Assembly (NCBI GenBank): GCA_002418965.1
Contig: DIFD01000018.1
Span: 289,834-353,833 of the forward strand
Source: Peptococcaceae bacterium UBA5757
GTDB taxonomy: Bacteria > Bacillota > Dehalobacteriia > UBA4068
Direction of reading: 5' to 3'
DNA: 64,000 nt
The notes under the pieces were generated by a model that was given only the letters and a program-made list of their open reading frames with translations, was not told the origin of the DNA and did not search any database. This document shows positions 2,589 through 54,049 of this stretch, piece by piece. Position 1 is the stretch's first letter. Each line of letters begins with the position of its first letter. The position numbers and the translations under genes were made by a program.

Positions 2589-3674
2589 TTATGACAATCT
2601 CTCGGCATAGCTTTGTAAAAAATCCTGCTGCGATAAAATCTGCATCTCTTGCGCTCCTGCTGGCAAAAATGCCAATTCCCCGGCAGTAAGTACACTTTGA
2701 CAGGAGAGGACCACATTTGAATAACACTCCGACAGCCATTGGCGGTTACTCTTATTCTGTCCGACTACCTGCTCCATATCGCCAGGAAAAGCGTAAAGCT
2801 TCCCTTCTTTTTGCCCTTGCAACAGCATCTCCATCTGCCGACGCCGCAATTCGGACCAGACCAAGTTACCAAACGCCGCATGGTAAGGTCCACATAAAAC
2901 GGCGGCTTCCGTTTCTTTGGAAGGATTCAAGCCCATGCGGATTAATTCAACCCCTGCGGCTAAAAACAAAATCGCCATATCGCAACAAACATCCACAGCC
3001 CGGGTAAGCATTTGCGGCTCATATTGCCCCTGCTGCCATAAATCCGCTAAAAGGGTATCCTTTAACACCACGGTCGGATAGATGCGAGCCATGTCGCACC
3101 CAGTATTAACGGCAATTTTAGCCGACTGGAGACTCTTTTGCGCCGTGTCGGCAGGAAGTCCCGTCATCAGCTGCACACCGAGCCTAAAACCGTGCCGTTT
3201 GACTCTCAGGCATGCTTCATAGGCCGTTTTGGCATCATAATGACGACCGGAGCACTCCAAAACATCATCAAAAAACGATTGAATTCCTAATTCTATTGTC
3301 TTTACGCCATAAGAGGATAAAAAATCCAACTCATCATCATCCACGAAATCCGGCCTCGTGGAAATACGGATGGAGCTGATTTTTCCCTCTGCAATACCGG
3401 CTATCGCTACTTCCAAATATTTTTTTTGTCGTTCTTGGGGCAAAGCGGAAAATGTCCCCCCATAAAAAGCAACCTGAGGCTTTTCTTTTCCAGTATATTC
3501 AAAAATTGTAGCTTTTATCTGCTCTTGGCTGGGGCTTTGAGCTTGACTGCTAATCACTCTTTGGTCACAAAAAACACAAGCCCCGGGGCAACCTTCCATA
3601 GGGATAAAAAAAGGCAAAATATGCCTTTTGCCTTTTTGTTTCTTGCTGACATTTTTAGGTTGTACCGGCCTCAT
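2589..3674 (-). CDS. Elp3/MiaB/NifB-like radical SAM protein (YhcC-like)
   Basis: GCPGACVFCDQ (CxxxCxxC), FYGGTF, STRPD, IELGIQS motifs; usual position between rnc and smc in Clostridia. Confidence 0.88.
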   Translation of the reverse strand: MRPVQPKNVSKKQKGKRHILPFFIPMEGCPGACVFCDQRVISSQAQSPSQEQIKATIFEYTGKEKPQVAFYGGTFSALPQERQKKYLEVAIAGIAEGKISSIRISTRPDFVDDDELDFLSSYGVKTIELGIQSFFDDVLECSGRHYDAKTAYEACLRVKRHGFRLGVQLMTGLPADTAQKSLQSAKIAVNTGCDMARIYPTVVLKDTLLADLWQQGQYEPQMLTRAVDVCCDMAILFLAAGVELIRMGLNPSKETEAAVLCGPYHAAFGNLVWSELRRRQMEMLLQGQKEGKLYAFPGDMEQVVGQNKSNRQWLSECYSNVVLSCQSVLTAGELAFLPAGAQEMQILSQQDFLQSYAERLS

Positions 3675-3685
3675 CTTGATCCCTC

Positions 3686-4477
3686 TTAACCATTATGGGT
3701 ATTCTTTTTATTAACGATTTTTTTATGACTTTTATCCAACAAAACGGGCAACCATTGATCCATATTTTGAATAGCGTCTTTCGCTGCTTCCTGCTGGCTG
3801 CATTTTTTAGAGTTGCCGCTGCCTTTGCCTAGGATAAGGTCACGGCAATACACGCCGCTTTCAAAAATTTTAGCATGGTCGGGACCGGTGCTGTCCAAAA
3901 CCCGGTAATTGATGGAAAGTGGGCACTGCTTTTGCACCATTTCCTGCAACTGGCTTTTACTGTCCTCATATCCCTCCGCAACCAGGTTGTCCAACTCGTC
4001 GGCAAATTGCTCCAGGACAATCGATCTTGCGGCATCCATTCCCCGGTGCAAATAAACTGCGCCTAAAACCGCTTCAAAAGCATCGGCTAAGACGGAACTG
4101 CGTTCACGGTCACCTGCTGCGTCACTGCCTTTTCCCAAACGCATGGCTTTGCCGATCCCCATTTTCAACGCAGCATGAAACAAAGCCGACTCGCATACAA
4201 CTACAGCACGCATTTTTGTCAGGTCGCCTTCCCTTTGTTCCGGATAGCGTTTATACAAGTATTCTCCCACTACAAAATCCAAAATGGCATCGCCCAGAAA
4301 CTCTAAGCGCTGATTATCCAGATTGTTTTTTTCTCCTTCAAAAAAGGTAGGATGAGTCAAGGCCTGATCCAGCAAATCCTTCCCTTCCCCGGTCATAGAA
4401 AGTTTGATTGCTAAAGCATCCATGTTGGAAACAAAATCAATCTGCTGGGGTTTATTCTGAATCGAATGTTTTCCCAA
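3686..4477 (-). CDS. rnc: Ribonuclease III
   Basis: NQRLEFLGDAIL signature, ADAFEAVLGAVY, C-terminal dsRBD (GPDHAKIF, GKGSGNSKK); TTG start uncertain. Confidence 0.95.
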   Translation of the reverse strand: MGKHSIQNKPQQIDFVSNMDALAIKLSMTGEGKDLLDQALTHPTFFEGEKNNLDNQRLEFLGDAILDFVVGEYLYKRYPEQREGDLTKMRAVVVCESALFHAALKMGIGKAMRLGKGSDAAGDRERSSVLADAFEAVLGAVYLHRGMDAARSIVLEQFADELDNLVAEGYEDSKSQLQEMVQKQCPLSINYRVLDSTGPDHAKIFESGVYCRDLILGKGSGNSKKCSQQEAAKDAIQNMDQWLPVLLDKSHKKIVNKKNTHNG

Positions 4478-10302: not shown

Positions 10303-10778
10303 ACAAATACCTCCTTTAGATACGGCGAATCTTCATATTTATTTATTATATCACATTATTTTTATTTATCCAATAATACGGGCTTTCCAAACCGCTTAAT
10401 TGACTTTAAAAACGATGCTAAAAATAAAATGAAGTAAATTTTAAACTTTACATTATCACAGAATTGTTTTTGAAAATCGGAGTCGCTACTAAAATTGCAA
10501 GGATTTAGATAAAGCATTAATTTACACGAGGTATGAAATACCAAGGAGATTAATAGCTTTATTCCCCAAAATATAGTATAATTGATTGAATATTTTTAAT
10601 TTTCTCTAAAATATCAGTTTTTATTTTTAAATAAATTCGAAAGAGATTCTGTTTTAAACAACTCGTTTATTTTGGTATTTGGTATATTGTAGATAAGGCT
10701 GTTTATGTACATAAATCATCATACTGAAGCAAGAGCAATGACTGTTTTTAGTTATATAATACTTAGGGGGGCTACAGT

Positions 10779-11390
10779 ATGTTAAATGTAAATAAATTAT
10801 TAGCGGCAGCCAATAAGGACCTCTCTTTGATAAATAAAGAGATTGCCCTCCAAAAGAAGCTTATAAAAGTACAAGCAGTATGTAATATCCAGCAGCAACT
10901 ATTAGAAAAAACATTAATATGTATCGGGGATGCGGTCATCTCCACAGACATAAAGAATAATATTGTTTTTTAAAATAAAGTTGCCGAGAAAATTACCGGC
11001 TGGACAAAGAATGAATAAAGTCGGGGAACTGAATAGCAGAGAGATTGTAGAAATTTGAAAGCATCCCGGGAAGGGTTGGTGTATATTAAATGCGACCAAT
11101 GAATTTTCAGAGTTGGCCGAATTTGTTCTTGCACATCATAAGATGTGGGATGGCAGTGGGTACCCTAATGGGCTTAGTAGAGAAAAAAACCGTTAGAAGC
11201 AAGGATCATTAAAATAGCTGATGCCTATGATGCAATGACAAGTGAGAGCTGCTACAAAGTACCTTTTAAAAAAGAGCACGCCGTAGAAGAGTTAAAGAAA
11301 TATTCCGGTACCCATTTTGACCCTAAAGTTATAGTAGTATTTGTGAATAATGTTTTACCATACGAGAGTGATTTCCAGATCGGGTATTAA
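10779..11390 (+). pseudogene. Decayed PAS plus HD-GYP (c-di-GMP phosphodiesterase) gene
   Basis: PAS start TLICIGDAVISTDIKNNIVF*NKVAEKITGWTKNE*, then a frame change into HD-GYP NKVGELNSREIVEI*KHPGKGWCILNATNEFSELAEFVLAHHKMWDGSGYPNGL, a second frameshift in an A-run, then PLEARIIKIADAYDAMTSE...ELKKYSGTHFDPKVI. Confidence 0.88.
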
Positions 11391-11528
11391 AAGCAACTCT
11401 CTATGATATTTTCCAAAACAATATTGTATTAAACCATCGCATTAAACGAAAAAAAGCACACAAATAGTGGGCTTTTATGTTTATGCCGAATACCGATACC
11501 AGAGGATTTTATATTGAAGACTATTGTT

Positions 11529-11558
11529 GTTTAAAAAATCTTTATTTTAGTCATAATA
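11529..11558 (+). promoter_or_regulatory. Putative forespore (SigF/SigG-type) promoter of gpr
   Basis: GTTTA-N15-AGTCATAATA resembles the GYWTA-N15-GgnnAnAHTA consensus. Confidence 0.55.
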
Positions 11559-11592
11559 AGAGACATAACAAAATTAAAGAAGGAAGAACCAG

Positions 11593-17405: not shown

Positions 17406-17419
17406 TTAATCATTCCTCC

Positions 17420-17779
17420 TTAGCCAACCAACCTTACTCCTTGAACATTTACGGTCACATGGTTGACTTTCAGTCCGGTATGTCTTTCAACAATATATTT
17501 AACATTGTCCATCACATTCTGGGCAATGACAGAAATATTGATTCCATAACCGATGACAACGTTCACGGTAATTTTTAGCACATCTGATTTGAGATCAATA
17601 TCGACCCCTTTTGCCAGTGACTCTTTCCCTAAAAGCTCCGCAATCCCATCGCTGAAGATATGGGAAGAAACTACACCGACAATACCAAAGCATTCCGTCG
17701 TGGCAATCCCTGCCAAGGTTGAAATCACTTCAGGGCTGATAATGATAGAACCCCAAGTGCCCGCCAATTCTTTTCCCAA
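17420..17779 (-). CDS. Asp23/Gls24 family protein (YloU)
   Basis: VISTLAGIATTECFGIVG, GYGINISVIAQNVMDNVKY, V..VNVQGVR; upstream of the DAK2 gene as in Bacillus yloU-yloV. Confidence 0.92.
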   Translation of the reverse strand: MGKELAGTWGSIIISPEVISTLAGIATTECFGIVGVVSSHIFSDGIAELLGKESLAKGVDIDLKSDVLKITVNVVIGYGINISVIAQNVMDNVKYIVERHTGLKVNHVTVNVQGVRLVG

Positions 17780-18000
17780 TTTTCAGACCTCCTCTCGGAT
17801 TTACGCCTTTAGTATACCGTAATTTTCACTAAAATTAAACAATTTTTTGTCGAAAAGAAAATCCCACCGGAATCTATTTTATTTCTATTAGGAGAACCAT
17901 AAAATAGATTTCGGTCTTTAACATAAAAAAGCGCCTTGTAAAAGCGCTTTTTAGCCTCACCCTTGTTCTTGCATCTATCTATTCCCATATTTGACACTTT

Positions 18001-18189
18001 TTAGATTGCCCTTTGAACTTTCCCGGAACGTAAGCAACGGGTGCAAACGGATATTTTATGAGGAGAACCGTTAACGATTGCATTGACCGTTTGCAAATTG
18101 GGCTTCCATTTTCTTTTATTACGGATATGAGAGTGACTGACGCTCATTCCTGTTCTGGTTGTTTTGCCACAGACTTGACATTGTGCCAT
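18001..18189 (-). CDS. rpmB: 50S ribosomal protein L28
   Basis: MAQCQVCGK...VSHSHIRNKRKWKPNLQ...VCTRCLRSGKV; GGAGG RBS. Confidence 0.97.
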   Translation of the reverse strand: MAQCQVCGKTTRTGMSVSHSHIRNKRKWKPNLQTVNAIVNGSPHKISVCTRCLRSGKVQRAI

Positions 18190-18256
18190 GCGACACACCT
18201 CCTTTTATCCGGCATTATAGAAACAGCCAATGGCTGCGTTCATCATAGACTGTATT

Positions 18257-18285
18257 ATTTTATCAAAAGCTTTGGAATTTAGCAA
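18257..18285 (-). promoter_or_regulatory. SigA-type promoter of rpmB
   Basis: TTGCTA-N17-TAAAAT with TG extension. Confidence 0.6.
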
Positions 18286-18397
18286 GACTTTTTAAATAAA
18301 ATCTTAAATTTTTAAAAATTCATCGCAAAGCCCTATGTTTTCCGCACCAATAGGTCGCTTTGTTAATAAACTTTAATACGGGGTCAAAAAACCGGGG

Positions 18398-18619
18398 GTG
18401 AAGCACTTGCGCAGTCAAAGAGAAATCCTGAATCAAGTTGATTTGTATAAGGAAAAATTGCTGATCGCCATTGAGGAGAAAGCATTATATGATGATCAAC
18501 CGGACCTTGATCTGATGATTCTTTCTTTAATAGATAAATTGGAAACCCTGTTTTGGGTATTGGAAATGGATTTACCGGGCCATGACCTTTGGGAAAAATT
18601 ACAAAAAGTGAGCCATTGA
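18398..18619 (+). CDS. Small hypothetical protein (73 aa, predicted helical)
   Basis: GTG start after a G-rich RBS-like stretch; fills the gap between rpmB and yebC without overlap; protein-like composition; no recognised motif. Confidence 0.55.
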   Translation: MKHLRSQREILNQVDLYKEKLLIAIEEKALYDDQPDLDLMILSLIDKLETLFWVLEMDLPGHDLWEKLQKVSH

Positions 18620-18626
18620 TGATTTG

Positions 18627-34754: not shown

Positions 34755-34858
34755 AATAAAGCCCTCCTTAAAAAGAACTTATATGCTCGTAAATGTGCTC
34801 GCGACAGGATAGGTAGTCGGCTTATCGTATGAGCCTCGATTGATTAAAAAGCGTAAAG

Positions 34859-34888
34859 ATAAAGTTAGCCTAATATGGCTAACTTTAT
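34859..34888 (-). terminator. Hairpin/terminator after rplT
   Basis: ATAAAGTTAGCC-N6-GGCTAACTTTAT perfect 12-bp stem. Confidence 0.7.
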
Positions 34889-34908
34889 TGACAGAAGTAT
34901 TTATTGAA

Positions 34909-35265
34909 TTATTTTAGGTTGGCTTTGGCAATTTCGGCAAATTGGTTGAAAGCGGGCGCATCATTGACAGCCAATTCGGCCAAAACCTTCCGGTTGACAT
35001 CAACGTTGGCGTTTTTCAAACCGTTCATCATCCGGCTGTAAGATATCCCGTTCATTCTGGCTGCAGCATTAATTCTTGTGATCCACAATTTGCGGAAATC
35101 ACCCTTCTTCTTGCGGCGATGGGCAAAAGAATAGCATAGAGAATGCAAAACCTGTTGATTTGCGATTCTGAACAATTTGGAATTAGAAGCACGATAGCCT
35201 TTGGCCAATTTTAAAATTTTTAAATGACGGCGATGTTTGACATAGCCTCTTTTTACTCTGGTCAT
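34909..35265 (-). CDS. rplT: 50S ribosomal protein L20
   Basis: [42 protein letters not shown]. Confidence 0.98.
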
Positions 35266-35286
35266 AATGGGAACCTCTCTTTCGAC

Positions 35287-35484
35287 TTATAAATAGGGCA
35301 ATAACCTTTTGGTTTGTTTGGAATCGGCAGCGGAAACAAGAGTGCTATGACGTAAACCGCGTTTGCGATTAGCGGATTTTTTGGCCAAGATATGTCTTTT
35401 AAAAGCAGAACTGCGCTTGAGTTTCCCTGTAGCGGTAGCTTTTATGCGTTTGGCAGCACCTCTGTGCGTTTTCATTTTAGGCAT
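35287..35484 (-). CDS. rpmI: 50S ribosomal protein L35
   Basis: [13 protein letters not shown]...KRHILAKK...LLPY. Confidence 0.98.
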
Positions 35485-35515
35485 TGTTTTCCCCTCTTCT
35501 CATCAATTGTTGAAT

Positions 35516-39231: not shown

Positions 39232-39315
39232 AAAGGCCTCCGGTTAAGAATATTTTTCTAAATTTAGTATATTCATCTGCTTTGCATCTATACAAAATTT
39301 AAGCGTTGACGGCAT

Positions 39316-39349
39316 AAAAAAAAGTTCGGTATTAAACCGAACTTTTTTT
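39316..39349 (-). terminator. Terminator after rpsU
   Basis: AAAAAAAGTTCGGT-ATTAA-ACCGAACTTTTTTT. Confidence 0.8.
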
Positions 39350-39365
39350 GTTAATTATTAATTTA

Positions 39366-39542
39366 TTAATTCCATTTGCGCTTTCTGGCGGCCTCAGCTT
39401 TTTTCTTCCTTTTTACGCTGGGTTTTTCATAATGTTCGTGTTTGCGGATTTCCGCCATGACACCAGCTTTTTGACAGGTACGTTTAAAGCGTCTCAGCGC
39501 GCTGTCCAAAGACTCATTTTTTCCTACTCTAACTTCACTCAC
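39366..39542 (-). CDS. rpsU: 30S ribosomal protein S21 (58 aa; below the ORF-track cutoff)
   Basis: Manual translation from GTG 39542: [58 protein letters not shown]. Confidence 0.97.
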
Positions 39543-39663
39543 GATCTATATCCCTCCCCCCGAAAAAAAAACAGAGTTTGTTTAAAAGCAAAGCAAGCTT
39601 TGCCTGTAAAAATCACTAATCCTGGTATTTTTACATTATAAAGCAAAAATGTTTTTCCGTCAA

Positions 39664-40011
39664 CTATTGTTTTACAAAAGGCCCCAAAAACACACCGCCC
39701 AACAAATGATAGTGCAGGTGAAAGACCTCTTGCCCGCTGTCGGGGCCGCAATTGCAAACCAGACGGAACCCTTTTTCCCCGATACCCCTCTCTTTGGCAA
39801 TTTGGGTTGCTAAATAATTGATTTTACCGATTAGAGTGATATCTTCTTTTGTAACCGCATCACTTCCGGAGATATGCTTTTTGGGGATCAGCAAGACATG
39901 TACGGGAGCCAGCGGGTGGATATCTTCAAACGCCAGAACTTCATCGTCTTCATATATAATTTTGGCGGGGATTTCTTTGTTTGCGATTTTGCAAAAAATA
40001 CAATCGGACAT
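39664..40011 (-). CDS. HIT family nucleotide-binding protein (HinT-like)
   Basis: MSDCIFCKI, AFEDIHPLAPVHVLLIPKKHI, GQEVFHLHYHLLGG histidine triad. Confidence 0.95.
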   Translation of the reverse strand: MSDCIFCKIANKEIPAKIIYEDDEVLAFEDIHPLAPVHVLLIPKKHISGSDAVTKEDITLIGKINYLATQIAKERGIGEKGFRLVCNCGPDSGQEVFHLHYHLLGGVFLGPFVKQ

Positions 40012-40073
40012 AAAAAACACTCCTTTATCTATTAACAAAAATAATTCCACAAAATTTAATTAATCCCTTTTTG

Positions 40074-48507: not shown

Positions 48508-50316
48508 CTAATCGATTTCCAGTACCGCCATAAAGGCTTCCTGTGGGATTTCTACGCTTCCTACCTGCTTCATCCTCTTTTTACCTTCTTTTTGCTTTTC
48601 TAAGAGTTTTCTTTTACGTGAGATATCGCCGCCGTAACATTTTTCAATCACGTTTTTGCGCAAAGCTTTAACAGATTCGCGCGCGATTACCCTACTGCCG
48701 ATCGTGGCCTGAATGGGAACCTCAAACAACTGCCGCGGGATCAGGCTCCTCAATTTGGTGACCAAGGCCTTGCCCCGGTGATAGGCTTTATCTTTATGCA
48801 CGATGCAGGAAAGCGCATCCACGATCGCATCATTAACCAAAATATCCAGTTTGACCAATTCGGCCTTTTGATAGCCGGCCAACTCATAATCCAATGATGC
48901 GTAGCCCTTGGTACGGGATTTAAGCTGATCGAAAAAATCATAGATGATCTCGGACAGAGGCAGATCATATAACATCATGACACGTGTCGGCGTGATATAT
49001 TCCATATTGATAAAGACGCCGCGGCGCTCCTGGGTCAGCTCCATAATACTGCCGATGAATTCACTGGGCACCATGATGGTGGCCTTGACATATGGTTCCT
49101 CCACAAAAGCAAGCGTATTGGCTTCCGGCAGATTAACAGGATTGTCCACGGTCACCACTTCCCCATTGGTTTTGCTGGCACGGTAACTGACGCTGGGCGC
49201 CGTGATCAAAAGATCGAGGTTATACTCGCGCTCCAGCCGCTCTTTGATGATCTCCATATGCAAAAGCCCCAAAAACCCGCAGCGAAAGCCAAAACCCAAA
49301 GCTACGGAAGTTTCCGGTTCAAAAATCAGGGAAGCGTCATTCAATTGTAATTTTTCCAAAGCGTCCTTTAAATCACCGTAGGCATTGTTTTCCACCGGAT
49401 AAAGACCGCAAAAAACCATGGAGGTGGCTTTACGGTAACCGGGCAAAGGATATGGCGTGGGATTAGCCGCGTCCGTCACCGTATCGCCGACCCTAGTGTC
49501 GGCCACATTTTTGATGCTGGCAGCAAGATAGCCCACTTCTCCGGCGCTGAGCTTATCAACGGTTTTTGGAGCCGGCGTAAACACACCCACATCCGTTACT
49601 TCCGCCGTTTTGCCCGTATTCATCATGCGAACCTTCATGCCGGGCTTCAACTGCCCGTCCATAACGCGCACATAGGGAATAGCGCCTTTATAGCTATCAA
49701 ATTTGGAATCAAAAATCAAGGCGGAGAGAGGCGCGTCCACAAGACCGCTGGGCGGCTTAACTTTTTTGACGATGGCCTCCAAAATCTCCTGTGTACCCTG
49801 TCCCGTTTTGGCCGAGGCCAAAATAGCGTCCGATGCGTCCAGGCCGATCACATCTTCGATTTGCTTTTTAACGCCTTCCGGGTCGGCGCTGGGCAGGTCG
49901 ATCTTATTGATGACGGGTATGATCTCCAGATCATGTTCCAAAGCCAAATATACGTTGGCTAAGGTCTGTGCCTCGATACCCTGCGCTGCGTCTATGACCA
50001 ATAAAGCGCCTTCACAGGCAGCCAGACTGCGGGAAACCTCATAATTAAAATCGACATGTCCGGGCGTATCAATGAGATTGAGTATATAGGTATTGCCATC
50101 CAGTGCCGTGTAATTCAAGCGTACAACCTGTAATTTGATGGTGATGCCACGTTCTCGTTCCAGATCCATCTGATCCAATACTTGATCGGACATTTCCCGG
50201 TCAGACAAAGCGCCCGTATATTCCAAGATACGGTCAGCCAATGTAGATTTACCGTGGTCAATATGGGCAATGATGCAAAAGTTACGCACCAGATTGGTTT
50301 GGAATTCGTTTGCCAT
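48508..50316 (-). CDS. lepA: Translation elongation factor 4 LepA
   Basis: [63 protein letters not shown]. Confidence 0.99.
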
Positions 50317-50339: not shown

Positions 50340-51950
50340 CTATTCAGCTGGAGTTACTCTTGAACGTCTGAAGCGCCGTTTGAGAATCTTATTGACATAA
50401 TCGGCTTCTTCCATCTTTAAAAGATTGGCTATCAACATATAAACACCTACGCCTACGGGAATAGAAACCGCGATTTGTATGATTTGAGCGATCTTTGCTT
50501 CAACCCCGAAAACAGCTTCACAACCAAATGATGCCAGCCAGACGACAAGCCCCATCAATGTGCTGGTTAACACAGTCTTGCTAAAAGAAATAAGTAGGTT
50601 TTTTCCGTCTATATCGCCGCGTTTACGTTGCCATAACAATAACAGAACCACCATATTAATAATTCCGGCTATCGAGTAAGCCAGCGCCAACCCGTCTTGC
50701 GCCATGAAGCGTACCAATAAAAGACTGCAGCCGATATTGACCGCAATCGCCATGATACCGGCCAAAACCGGAGTCATCGTATCATGCAACGAATAAAAGA
50801 CCCGGCTTAAAACATGGATGGCACCGTAGGCAAACAGGCCGATACAATAATAAAGCAATACTTCGGCTGTGGCCAAAGTGGAAGCATGCGTAAAAGCGCC
50901 GGACTTGAATTCGAACATAAAGCGGATGATCGGCACACGTAAAACAGCAATACCCACGGCCGCGGGAACCGTAACAAAAACCACAGAACGGAGGCCTAAA
51001 GATGCTGTGGCCTTGAAATCCTCATCTTCGTGACGGGCAAACTGGGCTGTCAAAGAAGGGAAAACAGCAACCGCAATCGCGATGGCAAAAACGCCTATAG
51101 GCAATTGCATAATCCGTTGCGCCGTCCTTAATGCCGCAACCATTCCCTCAGGCAAACCGGATGCCAGGTTTTGGTTGATAAAGAGATTGATCTGACTGAC
51201 GGAAAGCCCGATAATCACCGGAATTATCAGTAAGATTAATTCTTTGACGCCCGGATGCATGAAATTAAAACTGAAGGTATAGCGGATTCCAACTTTTTTT
51301 AACGCCGGCACCTGAACCAAAAAATTGATGGCGGAACCGATCACGACACCAACAGAAAACCCTGCAATACCATATCCTGGCCAAAAATGTTCAATGGGTA
51401 CCGCCAAAAACAAACCACCCAAAATAATACCCAGGTTATATAAAACGGATCCCAGGGCGGGGGTTGTAAAATGCTTATAGGAATTGAGTATCCCCATGGA
51501 TATCCCCGATAAACACATAAAAAATACCTGGGCAAACATAATTCTTGTTAAGACGATGGTCATCTCCAGGGAGCGTCCGTCAAAACCCGGAACCAAAAGA
51601 TGGATCAACTGCGGCATATAGATGCAACCCAGGGTTACACCCACCGTCAAAAGCAGCATCACCCAGTTAAAGATGATACTGGCGACTTCCCAGCCTTCTT
51701 TTTCCCTGTTTGTGGCAATATAAGAAGAAAATACCGGGATAAAGGCAGAACTCAAAGCACCTCCGACCAAGAGCATATATAAAAAATCAGGGATTGAAAA
51801 AGCAGCATTGTAGGCATCGGTAATACGGTTTTGGCCAAACTGCGTATAGATAAAGACATCTCTTAAATATCCTAAAATACGGGAAAGGACCATCGTAACC
51901 ATCAAAAAACCGGCGGCGCGAACCACGGTAATTCTTTGCCCTTTTTCCAT
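50340..51950 (-). CDS. murJ: Lipid II flippase MurJ (MviN type)
   Basis: SRILGYLRD, DAYNAAFSIPD, GGALSSAFIPVF, QLPIGVF, FYSLHDTMTP; about 14 TM segments. Confidence 0.93.
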   Translation of the reverse strand: MEKGQRITVVRAAGFLMVTMVLSRILGYLRDVFIYTQFGQNRITDAYNAAFSIPDFLYMLLVGGALSSAFIPVFSSYIATNREKEGWEVASIIFNWVMLLLTVGVTLGCIYMPQLIHLLVPGFDGRSLEMTIVLTRIMFAQVFFMCLSGISMGILNSYKHFTTPALGSVLYNLGIILGGLFLAVPIEHFWPGYGIAGFSVGVVIGSAINFLVQVPALKKVGIRYTFSFNFMHPGVKELILLIIPVIIGLSVSQINLFINQNLASGLPEGMVAALRTAQRIMQLPIGVFAIAIAVAVFPSLTAQFARHEDEDFKATASLGLRSVVFVTVPAAVGIAVLRVPIIRFMFEFKSGAFTHASTLATAEVLLYYCIGLFAYGAIHVLSRVFYSLHDTMTPVLAGIMAIAVNIGCSLLLVRFMAQDGLALAYSIAGIINMVVLLLLWQRKRGDIDGKNLLISFSKTVLTSTLMGLVVWLASFGCEAVFGVEAKIAQIIQIAVSIPVGVGVYMLIANLLKMEEADYVNKILKRRFRRSRVTPAE

Positions 51951-52009
51951 GTGGTTTCCCCTTTTAAATCAAAATACTTGTCCAACTCTTAAAAAGAATT
52001 ATGATGTCA

Positions 52010-52156
52010 TGGCTGCAAACTGGCTCCGGCTTTTTGATAAAGTCGACCGGACTATGACGTAGCAATCCATATCGCGGCGCAAAGCACCGCAACCCATTAA
52101 AAAGCGCGGCTAAAAAACAGCTTTGTTAGTTTATCTTCCGTGGATATTATACCACA
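52010..52156 (-). ncRNA. Candidate structured ncRNA unit 3 (paralogue of unit 1), also the 5' region of murJ
   Basis: Begins at TGTGGTATAAT; shares several conserved blocks with 52320-52490; hairpins GCGGUG-CUUUG-CGCCGC and GGAUUG-N8-UAGUCC. Confidence 0.5.
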
Positions 52157-52159
52157 AAA

Positions 52160-52320
52160 CAGCGTCAAAGCCACAGGTTTTGTAAACGCCTAAGCGTTTA
52201 CACGTTGCACAAAAAAAGCGACTGCCACTTACGATGTAATGAGCACTCAATAAAATCATAATGCCGCAGTATGCGGCACTAAAAAGCGCTGCCCTTTTAG
52301 TTTTGTGTTCATTATACCAT
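52160..52320 (-). ncRNA. Candidate ncRNA unit 2 (divergent member of the tandem array)
   Basis: Begins at TATGGTATAAT; AAACUAA followed by a first hairpin similar to unit 3; UGCCGCA-UAC-UGCGGCA hairpin; ends in a weak hairpin plus U7. Confidence 0.4.
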
Positions 52321-52490
52321 ATCCTGCCGCTGCAAACCAACCGATGGATTATCGGCCGTTTAACGGCGGTGTCCGTTCTTTGCCGACCGTTCTGTGGATT
52401 ATTAATCCTCATCACGGCGCAAAGCCGTAACCCGGCAAAAGCATGGGTACAAACAGCTTTGTAAGTTTTTCATGCGGATAGTATAACACA
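52320..52490 (-). ncRNA. Candidate structured ncRNA unit 1
   Basis: Begins at TGTGTTATACT; five short hairpins plus an enclosing UUUGCCG/CGGCAAA stem; paralogous to unit 3. Confidence 0.5.
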
Positions 52491-52527
52491 AGTACTTTCA
52501 TTTTTACATCTTACTTCTCTTGAGCGT

Positions 52528-53532
52528 CTATTTTAGAATCTCGGACAAAGTTTTTGCGATCATTTGCGCGCTCGCTTTGGCCTCTGCTAAGGTATTATCC
52601 GTAGATCCCACCTCCAAAAGGATACATTTGGGAGAAAAGTGTTGATTATAGCGTCCGTCCTGCACCCTGACCCCGCGTAAAATCCCCGGGTAGTTTTTCT
52701 CCAAGAGGCTGCCGATGCTTTGAGAAAAAGCCAGGTTTTCTTTCCAGTTATCATGTGTTAACCGCTGATTGCTGCCCACGATCAACATCACTTTGGCGGC
52801 CTTCTTCCCGTCATTTTCAAACGTAGTCGACACCCCCTCAAATGCAGCGTCACGGTGCACATCGATATATATCTGCAAAGATGGGTACTTTTTCTTCATC
52901 TTTTTTAGACTCTCCAAAGAATTTGCGTAAGACTTGGTCCACTCGGGGTAATCATGGATTGTTTCACAAAGAACAGTCTGGATGCCAGTTTTTTCCAAAC
53001 TGGACTGAAGCTGTTTTGCCACTTCAAAAACACCGCCATTTTTCCCTTCCAACCTATCCGCCCCCATATTGGCATAACTTTCCGCATTATGCGTGCAATA
53101 GATACAGACAATGGGGCCCTCTATTGGTGATTCATCAGCGTTTTTGGCGTTATCTTTCGGAGTCTCCTCTTGTTCTTCGATTTTTTCTCCTTCAGGTTGA
53201 GTAGGCTCCGCTTCCAGCAGCTCTTCTCCATCTTCAGAAAAATCCGGATCTGCCGTGGCTGTGACAATTGGCTCTATCATTAAACTGCTGCTGGCCAAAA
53301 CATATTTAGGAGAGACAAGCTTTTGCAAAACCTGTGCGAAGGTTAGCGGTGTGGGGTCAAGAGAACGGGCAGGCAAGGTGACAGAAATCATCGATTTTGC
53401 CCAATCGCCTTCAAAGAATGTTCCGATTTGAAGAACGGGAAGCAAACGAAATCCAGTGTAAAACCCGATGATCAAGACTAATGTAAATATCCAAATGATA
53501 ATCGATCGCAAACCACGCCTACGTCCAAACAT
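52528..53532 (-). CDS. spoIIP: Stage II sporulation protein P (septal peptidoglycan hydrolase)
   Basis: IYCTHNAESY, HDYPEWTKSYANS, YIDVHRDA, VMLIVGS, RYNQHFSP..ILLEVG. Confidence 0.92.
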   Translation of the reverse strand: MFGRRRGLRSIIIWIFTLVLIIGFYTGFRLLPVLQIGTFFEGDWAKSMISVTLPARSLDPTPLTFAQVLQKLVSPKYVLASSSLMIEPIVTATADPDFSEDGEELLEAEPTQPEGEKIEEQEETPKDNAKNADESPIEGPIVCIYCTHNAESYANMGADRLEGKNGGVFEVAKQLQSSLEKTGIQTVLCETIHDYPEWTKSYANSLESLKKMKKKYPSLQIYIDVHRDAAFEGVSTTFENDGKKAAKVMLIVGSNQRLTHDNWKENLAFSQSIGSLLEKNYPGILRGVRVQDGRYNQHFSPKCILLEVGSTDNTLAEAKASAQMIAKTLSEILK

Positions 53533-53552
53533 TTGTCCACCTCCCGCCTTTT

Positions 53553-53586
53553 ATTATAAATATGCGGCAGATCAATGGGTATGAAC
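53553..53586 (-). promoter_or_regulatory. Putative SigE-type mother-cell promoter of spoIIP
   Basis: TCATACC-N13-CATATTTA upstream of the GGGAGGTGG RBS. Confidence 0.45.
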
Positions 53587-53594
53587 ATTCGATA

Positions 53595-53660
53595 AAAAAA
53601 TAAAAGCCTAAACAAAAATCCTATCCGCGCGGATAAGAGCTTTTGTTTAAGCTTTTTGTT
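53595..53660 (-). terminator. Long terminator hairpin after rpsT
   Basis: AAAAGC(C)TAAACAAAAA...TTTTTGTTTA(A)GCTTTT stem with an inner TATCCGCGCGGATA palindrome and a T-tract on the minus strand. Confidence 0.7.
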
Positions 53661-53678
53661 TATAAAAATAACTTGACA

Positions 53679-53939
53679 CTACATTTGGCTGACGGCTTTA
53701 TAAAGGTTGGATTTACGGCGAGCAGCGGCGTTTTTGTGGAGAACACCCTTGGTAACGGTTTTATCTAAAACGCTAACGGTTTGAACCAGTTGTGCTTCTG
53801 CTTCTTCTTTATTGCCGGCCTGAACGGTTTCGGCAAATTTTTTCAACTGGCTTTTCATTTGCGATTTAATAGCAGCATTCCTCTGACGACGGGTCTCAGC
53901 TACGATTACACGTTTTTTAGCAGATTTAATATTCGGCAT
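53679..53939 (-). CDS. rpsT: 30S ribosomal protein S20
   Basis: MPNIKSAKKRV...KGVLHKNAAARRKS; AGGAGGTG RBS. Confidence 0.98.
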   Translation of the reverse strand: MPNIKSAKKRVIVAETRRQRNAAIKSQMKSQLKKFAETVQAGNKEEAEAQLVQTVSVLDKTVTKGVLHKNAAARRKSNLYKAVSQM

Positions 53940-54004
53940 GCTTGTCACCTCCTCTTGGGATATAATTCTATCTAAACGATTGTTTTTTTACATAACTAAC
54001 GATT

Positions 54005-54033
54005 ATTGTACCATCGACTTAGCTAAAATGCAA
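54005..54033 (-). promoter_or_regulatory. SigA-type promoter of rpsT
   Basis: TTGCAT-N17-TACAAT with TG extension. Confidence 0.7.
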
Positions 54034-54049
54034 GTTAAATCAATAAATT

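Follow-up and report, generated by a model that had tools for sequence, protein, structure and literature searches.

Three stacked promoter-type boxes and a duplicated leader in the spoIIP-murJ gap of an uncultured Bacillota bacterium: a probable lineage-specific promoter and leader region for murJ-lepA

What occupies the 577-nucleotide (nt) gap between spoIIP and murJ (positions 51951-52527) in Peptococcaceae bacterium UBA5757, an uncultured member of the Bacillota from a hydrocarbon metagenome (the source metagenome, X1)? The gap lies in a 64,000-nt stretch of contig DIFD01000018.1, which is called the window here; its features are on the minus strand, the strand of murJ, unless stated otherwise. 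A preliminary description saw three non-coding units in the gap, each headed by a promoter, and proposed either a duplicated family of small RNAs (sRNAs) or protein-sponge RNAs, or stacked cis-regulatory leaders of murJ, the lipid II flippase gene. Stacked promoter-headed murJ leaders fit best, with conserved -10 zones and a conserved core in unit 3, while the sRNA family is weak and the sponge is unsupported. At a probability of about 0.5, we take the gap to supply murJ-lepA with promoters and a 5' leader specific to this lineage, namely stacked sigma-A promoters and a constrained leader; a new family of structured sRNAs is less likely.

A motif scan found three extended -10 boxes exactly at the coordinates and spacings previously reported: the TRTG-extended P1 (TGTGTTATACT, 52480-52490), P2 (TATGGTATAAT, 52321-52311) and P3 (TGTGGTATAAT, 52146-52156), spaced 169 nt and 165 nt apart and all on the murJ strand. 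Of the three, P3 lies closest to murJ, 196 nt upstream of its ATG. These are the only matches to TRTGKTATAMT in the 64 kb, where 0.27 would be expected, and 0 of 100 shuffles reached three. All three boxes fit the Firmicute sigma-A consensus, a -16 TRTG plus TATAAT, as quoted in PMC6570832. P2 is preceded by the block GGTTTGCAGC and has a -35-like hexamer, TTGGTT, at 52340-52335 with a spacer of 18 nt, so that the whole P2 feature spans 52311-52340. A plus-strand promoter-like site, TTGTTA-16-TATTAT (52123-52150), overlaps P3 and has a counterpart in unit 1 at about 52459-52487. Its TTG is the end of the invariant block AAACAGCTTTG, and antisense transcription toward spoIIP may start there.

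The units behind P1 and P3 are paralogous. With the -10 boxes removed, the local alignment of unit 1 with unit 3 scored 54, against 16.0 +/- 2.3 for dinucleotide shuffles (z = 16.8); the two are 70-75% alike and share the described blocks in order. Tandem Repeats Finder reported no array, because the units are too diverged. The unit 1 core (52395-52473) holds AAACUUACAAAGCUGUUU, GCUUUU, GGGUU, hairpin 1 (52428-52414) and hairpin 2 (52408-52396), and two 3' hairpins (52341-52367) follow, H3 (GCCGUUAAACGGC, 52367-52355) and H4 (52355-52341). Its paralogue, the unit 3 core (52059-52139), holds AAACUAACAAAGCUGUUU, AGCCGCGCUUUUU, AAUGGGUU, hairpin 1 (52090-52074) and the 5' arm of hairpin 2 (52068-52049). 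The hairpins, and a TTA in unit 1 that is TAA in unit 3, are as previously described. In all copies an AAAC-N10-GTTT inverted repeat directly follows the -10 box, and AAAC-NNN-CAAAGCUGUUU is invariant in five copies apart from its three middle bases. Downstream of the unit 3 core lie a variable 3' part (51998-52058), with GTTTGCAGC (52020-52012) and a decayed -10-like sequence CATCATAAT, and then an invariant stretch before murJ (51951-51997), with a small hairpin (51999-51985) and the Shine-Dalgarno sequence AAGGGG (51963-51958).

Unit 2 had been seen as a diverged copy of the same family. Without its -10 box it has no detectable homology to unit 1 (z = -0.3) and a marginal score against unit 3 (z = 2.1), with which it has only the string GCNGCGCTTTTTA in common beyond the box. 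The region therefore consists of two paralogous units split by a different promoter-headed segment.

Which parts of the gap are under constraint? Two groundwater metagenomes, X2 and X3, contain near relatives of the host, and a 613-nt X2 contig (X2c7) covers the whole gap. X2c7 was rebuilt from its differences to the window, and its printed end sequences agree; the conservation figures compare the window with this one rebuilt orthologue. It has the same three-unit layout, and 15.3% of the columns differ (about 85% identity), very unevenly spread. Differences are few in the P1 zone (52520-52470; 4 of 51 columns, 7.8%), the P2 zone (52340-52297; 3 of 44, 6.8%), the P3 zone (52189-52135; 3 of 55, 5.5%) and the unit 3 core as aligned (52134-52059; 4 of 76, 5.3%, P = 0.006), and the stretch before murJ has none (51997-51954; 0 of 44, 0%). 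The unit 1 body (52469-52341) differs at 31 of 130 columns (24%), the unit 2 body (52296-52190) at 23 of 107 (21.5%) and the 3' part of unit 3 (52058-51998) at 19 of 63 (30%). The promoter zones together (10/150) differ less than the two unit bodies and the 3' part of unit 3 taken together (73/300; nominal Fisher P = 2e-6), and for all conserved zones against the bodies the nominal P is 8e-11; divergence in the bodies is 3-5 times that of the promoter zones and the unit 3 core. Neutral drift can be gauged from third codon positions of spoIIP, which differ by 12-17% in the two X2 strains (17/116, about 15%). By this measure the unit bodies drift at or above the neutral rate, while constraint is seen in all three promoter zones, in the unit 3 core and around the ribosome-binding site. 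P1 in X2c7 (TGTGTTATAAT) shifts toward the consensus, from TATACT to TATAAT, and the P2 and P3 boxes are unchanged. The decayed fourth -10-like site after unit 3 sits in the 30% zone and looks like the picture of an unselected copy.

Two further contigs are less regular. X2 contig c8 keeps the region upstream of P1 (...TACTTGTGGT) and 52087-52324; its unit 1 is unalignable and of similar length, and 76 unlike letters replace 51984-52086. X3 contig c12 is still more diverged, yet 52087-52108 is perfect, and this segment is identical in four lineages. Strain-level replacement, with unlike sequence of similar length, is thus seen in c8 and c12 at 51984-52086 and 52325-52514, with the flanks and 52087-52108 kept. 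The array is a plastic region and a hot spot of turnover.

The gap is non-coding, as had been stated. Six-frame translation gave short frames only, and X2c7 breaks all of them by new stops or by indels of 1-2 nt, which are not multiples of three. The leaderless 23-codon frame of unit 1 is stopped after 8 codons in X2c7, and minus-strand frames of 42 and 94 amino acids (aa) and a plus-strand frame of 67 aa are all broken. A small protein or type I toxin gene was rejected, as no open reading frame (ORF) is kept between the strains.

How did the array arise? Twelve murJ loci of relatives (MurJ 58-70% identical) were found by exact-protein look-ups, and single-protein MurJ scans of genome and metagenome contig collections added only two useful loci. 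The nearest full-length relatives, some of them named Dehalobacterium, Formimonas or Peptococcales, have only 70% identity in MurJ and 47% in SpoIIP. Syntenic relatives carry spoIIP, a small membrane ORF (57-120 aa), one -10-type box, murJ, lepA and hemN. The small ORF has the motif GLN(T/L)xAxG(M/L)H and belongs to no Pfam family; it was located in L010 (2674-2847), L014 (5103-5312), L015 (2000-2185), L016 (131-385), L017 (2094-2381), L018 (1494-1856), L019 (1626-1898) and L002 (about 3620-3970). It occupies the position of yqxA in Bacillus subtilis. A TGN-extended box, TGNTATAAT, lies 31-101 nt before the murJ start in 9 of the 12 relatives, and therefore the extended -10 murJ promoter is ancestral. 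The units are absent from the relatives: nhmmer searches with profiles for units 1/3 and for unit 2 turned up no further copies in the window plus 20 loci, and no Rfam family was found in 12 related loci. In tblastn, the small ORFs of the relatives matched nothing significantly in the gap or the window. Short DNA matches (GGTTTGCA...) that might have been a vestige of the small ORF fall in different codons in different relatives and were dismissed as chance. The absence of the units from the relatives and of any trace of the small ORF from the window suggests that the array is a lineage-specific replacement of that ORF, which has left the nearest promoter 196 nt from the murJ start, against 31-101 nt in the relatives. 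The preliminary description had allowed for a duplication present in this genome only; the array is indeed restricted to one narrow lineage, but X2c7 places it in more than one genome.

In L015 (MurJ 68% identical), the segment 2185-2500 before murJ contains two -10 boxes separated by about 145 nt, and a strong terminator stands between the small ORF and the first of them. The 12-nt string of P2, ATATGGTATAAT / TATGGTATAATG, also occurs at the murJ promoters of L011 and L015, and CGCTGTTTTG upstream of P3 is common to L015, so that the L015 strings TATGGTATAATG and CGCTGTTTTG...TGGTATAAT match P2 and P3. L015 hints that the two-promoter layout is possibly older than the units.

The gap could then have evolved as follows. 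The lineage would have lost the small ORF that its relatives carry after spoIIP, and P1, P2 and P3 would fire as sigma-A-type TRTG-extended promoters in the murJ direction, with transcripts that read into murJ. P1 and P3 would head paralogous leaders from a local tandem duplication of about 170 nt, which probably also copied the upstream block of the next promoter, GTTTGCAGC. Clear constraint falls only on P3 with the unit 3 core and on the last 45 nt with the ribosome-binding site (RBS), which points to the unit 3 core as the working 5' leader, acting as RNA with two hairpins, one of them GC-rich. Units 1 and 2 would have bodies of drifting spacer or leader in which some local hairpins are kept, and a weak terminator in unit 2 (at the site called unit 2a below) may end some transcripts. 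In this way murJ would gain vegetative promoters independent of spoIIP.

Such an arrangement resembles the tandem sigma-A TRTG-extended promoters of Bacillus subtilis and other Firmicutes in its TRTG-N-TATAAT boxes with weak or absent -35 elements, in having several promoters of the same direction before one operon, and in a box type that precedes murJ in 9 of 12 relatives. It differs in the regular spacing of about 167 nt and in two boxes with duplicated leaders of about 100 nt. Several points speak against a stacked promoter and leader region. The -35 hexamers are weak, and a sigma-70 scan that requires both hexamers called none of the three boxes. No terminator lies between spoIIP and unit 2a. 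The unit 3 core is thermodynamically ordinary (z = -0.9, -0.7) and could therefore act as DNA and not as RNA. There is no evident reason for keeping three promoters 165-169 nt apart. Finally, the conservation was gauged against a single related sequence, in segments whose limits were set with the data in view, which makes the Fisher P values optimistic.

Does the gap carry a structured RNA? No match to Rfam 15 at gathering score was found anywhere in the 64-kb window, in line with the earlier statement that no riboswitch or sRNA family could be recognised, and E-value mode on 51900-52600 returned only two chance snoRNA-like matches (E = 0.89 and 3.6). Folded singly, units 1, 2 and 3 have z scores of -3.2, -2.6 and -0.46. 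Covariation of the hairpins had been claimed. The hairpins are present, and between the units one compensatory pair (A-U versus G-C) occurs in hairpin 1, which is all that remains of this claim: for the four copies of units 1 and 3, RNAalifold gave an energy of -12.6 kcal/mol, a covariation term of -0.62 and 1 compensatory pair in 29. These tests rest on few sequences, four unit copies and one full orthologue. In the ten hairpins compared between the window and X2c7, 41 pairs are unchanged, 3 are compensatory, 6 are kept by a one-sided change and 13 are broken; in this small sample no significant covariation is seen, and 13 pairs are broken against 9 kept through change. Stems change as often as loops (20% versus 14%), and the minus-strand structure conservation index (SCI) of the window and X2c7 (0.59-0.74) does not exceed column-shuffled controls (0.59 versus 0.54-0.59). 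Since the plus strand equals or beats the minus strand in the structure tests (z = -4.2 for the plus strand of unit 2), there is no strand-specific structure signal overall.

Single hairpins behave differently in X2c7. The stem of H3 (52367-52355) is kept through two compensatory double changes, and H4 (52355-52341) is destroyed. In the unit 1 core, an A.C mismatch appears in hairpin 1, and one base is missing from hairpin 2. The three changes in the unit 3 hairpins (U.G to C-G twice, G-C to G.U once) are paired on the minus strand only, and in the pre-murJ hairpin (51999-51985) one U.G becomes C-G. Hairpin 1 of X3 contig c12 keeps the outer GCGG:CCGC stem with a different top and the loop CGCAA, so the CUUUGC loop is not universal. 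No expression platform was seen, as unit 3 has no terminator and the last 73 nt before the murJ ATG, which fold no better than shuffles (z = +1.5), offer no RBS-hiding helix.

The invariant, loop-like CAAAGC is complementary to the likewise invariant GCUUUG at the top of hairpin 1, and two mutually exclusive folds can therefore be drawn. We see a slim chance that the unit 3 core and its unit 1 paralogue represent a new RNA element, acting in cis to tune the operon of the lipid II flippase. If so, a metabolite or protein tied to cell-wall synthesis could set a switch between the two folds, and the P1-driven duplicate would be a second, independently promoted sensor. Tandem riboswitches and structured leaders are known from the glycine riboswitch and from tandem T-boxes. 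The gap is like them in its repeated non-coding modules of the same orientation 5' of one operon, with a conserved proximal module; it differs in having a promoter for each module, no covariation support, no expression platform, no Rfam match and a very narrow phylogenetic range.

The segment between P2 and P3 has features of its own. Unit 2a (52245-52304) is a two-hairpin RNA candidate, in which hairpin A (52301-52278) is followed by hairpin B (52281-52259) and a U-rich tail (52258-52249), a terminator-like site. It has a fold z of -2.7 and the sole terminator-like site within the gap, as the terminator scan of the gap found none in units 1 and 3. In X2c7, hairpin B loses two pairs and gains three G.U pairs. 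The P2 box and the unit 2a hairpins recur elsewhere, 52291-52322 in a 1975-nt contig of X2 and 52261-52303 in a 163-nt contig of X3, where the flanks are unlike the window and the loops differ with the stems kept. They may represent a second locus, or a small module present in several copies in related genomes; in the source metagenome X1 no second copy was seen. On thin evidence, unit 2a may be the best sRNA-like candidate in the gap. In unit 2b (52181-52217), GGCAGUCGC is followed by a run of seven T (T7, 52217-52211) and then by a palindromic hairpin of 9 bp, TGTAAACGC-TTAG-GCGTTTACA (52202-52181), both basal pairs of which are broken in X2c7.

The units might instead be separate trans-acting sRNA genes, with units 1 and 3 as siblings and unit 2a as an sRNA of about 55 nt with its own terminator. 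Tandem sibling sRNA genes with their own promoters are known in Listeria (LhrC1-4), Vibrio (Qrr) and Pseudomonas (PrrF1/2), and the gap shares with these arrays the head-to-tail intergenic units of 100-170 nt, the individual promoters and two clear paralogues. In favour of this, a conserved -10 box heads every unit, unit 2a combines two hairpins with a U-rich tail, a similar module with a P2-type promoter stands in other contexts in the 1975-nt and 163-nt contigs, and the invariance of CAAAGCUGUUU in five copies behind three variable bases would suit a seed. Against this, units 1 and 3 lack a terminator-like site, the unit 1 and 2 bodies diverge by 21-24%, no slower than third codon positions and so with no sign of purifying selection, and hairpin pairs are broken more often than compensated; the unit 2a terminator hairpin itself decays in X2c7. 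No other copy was found at 80% identity or more in the source metagenome, and none in 14 related loci. Unlike the known arrays, this one has no intrinsic terminators in units 1 and 3, no detectable purifying selection on the bodies and no conserved seed common to all units. The duplicated sRNA family is thus weakly supported, and we regard sRNA genes as fairly unlikely. A protein sponge of the CsrA/Rsm type was rejected: GGA occurs 8 times against 6.5 +/- 2.0 expected and is not enriched, which makes such a sponge unlikely, and the GGA after hairpin 1 is GAA in X3 contig c12. It is also unlikely that the array is a neutral relic of a tandem duplication whose boxes seem conserved only because the strains are close. 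The element is confined to one narrow lineage and absent from relatives at 58-70% MurJ identity, its bodies drift at the neutral rate, its minus-strand SCI (0.59) matches controls (0.54-0.59), and segments are replaced between strains. Yet the lower divergence of the promoter zones and unit 3 core (3-5 times; P = 8e-11 for all conserved zones versus bodies) is not expected of a relic, the decayed fourth -10-like site (30%) shows the look of an unselected copy, and units 1 and 3, still 70-75% alike, come from a duplication much older than the strain split.

The conserved blocks might instead work as DNA, either as operators or as a divergent promoter region on which a transcription factor acts, and the RNA would then be irrelevant. 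This would suit a unit 3 core conserved in sequence and not notably structured, as well as the AAAC-N10-GTTT inverted repeat, the plus-strand TTGTTA-16-TATTAT over P3 and the equal or better structure scores of the plus strand. No known operator consensus was recognised, however, the three changes in the unit 3 hairpins favour minus-strand RNA pairing, and the idea overlaps with a stacked promoter and leader region instead of excluding it; we consider it improbable. A by-eye check, with no formal test, gave no convincing match to extracytoplasmic function (ECF) sigma, sigma-54, WalR, Spo0A or ribonucleic antiterminator (RAT) motifs. Very improbable is a remnant of a small mobile or repeat element, such as a miniature inverted-repeat transposable element (MITE) or a BOX-like element, inserted where the small ORF had been. 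The array is bracketed by a 16-nt inverted repeat (52503-52488 and 51981-51966; 88% complementary), both arms of which are unchanged in X2c7, the modular content varies among strains and the ancestral small ORF is missing. However, the repeat is no better than chance (duplex energy against shuffles, P = 0.13), on which ground it was also rejected as a long-range helix or terminal repeat, a target-site duplication is absent, and no further copy turned up in the window, the related loci or, at 80% identity, the whole source metagenome.

The flanking genes and the size of the gap are as previously given. Upstream, spoIIP (52528-53532, stop TAG at 52530-52528) matches Pfam PF07454 SpoIIP at 5.5e-64; downstream, murJ (50340-51950) matches PF03023 MurJ at 8.7e-100 and is followed by lepA (48508-50316), with LepA domains in Pfam. 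The minus-strand gene order is comEC, holA, a short S20-like ORF, spoIIP, the gap, murJ and lepA. The short ORF, an 89-aa frame at 53679-53948 in the 517-nt holA-spoIIP stretch (53533-54049), is probably rpsT (S20), as in L010, L014 and L015. In Bacillus subtilis, spoIIP is preceded by gpr; the window has no gpr before spoIIP. With a GC content of 43%, the gap is near the coding level (45%) and above most other gaps of the window (31-41%). Other stretches of the window with no ORF of at least 130 aa (10303-11592, 17406-18626, 39232-40073 and 34755-35515) have 32-41% GC and no Rfam match, and there are no tRNAs in the 64-kb window.

What would the array mean for its host? If the gap is a stacked promoter and leader region, it would be one rebuilt by local duplication after gene loss, in which stacked vegetative promoters took the place of a sporulation-linked small ORF and uncoupled murJ-lepA from spoIIP. 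This would be useful for the annotation of an uncultured Bacillota group and would introduce no new principle. To our knowledge, no leader element has been described for murJ in Firmicutes. The finding would matter more if the unit 3 core of about 80 nt is a regulatory RNA, since how lipid II flipping is controlled is a question of interest in cell-wall biology.

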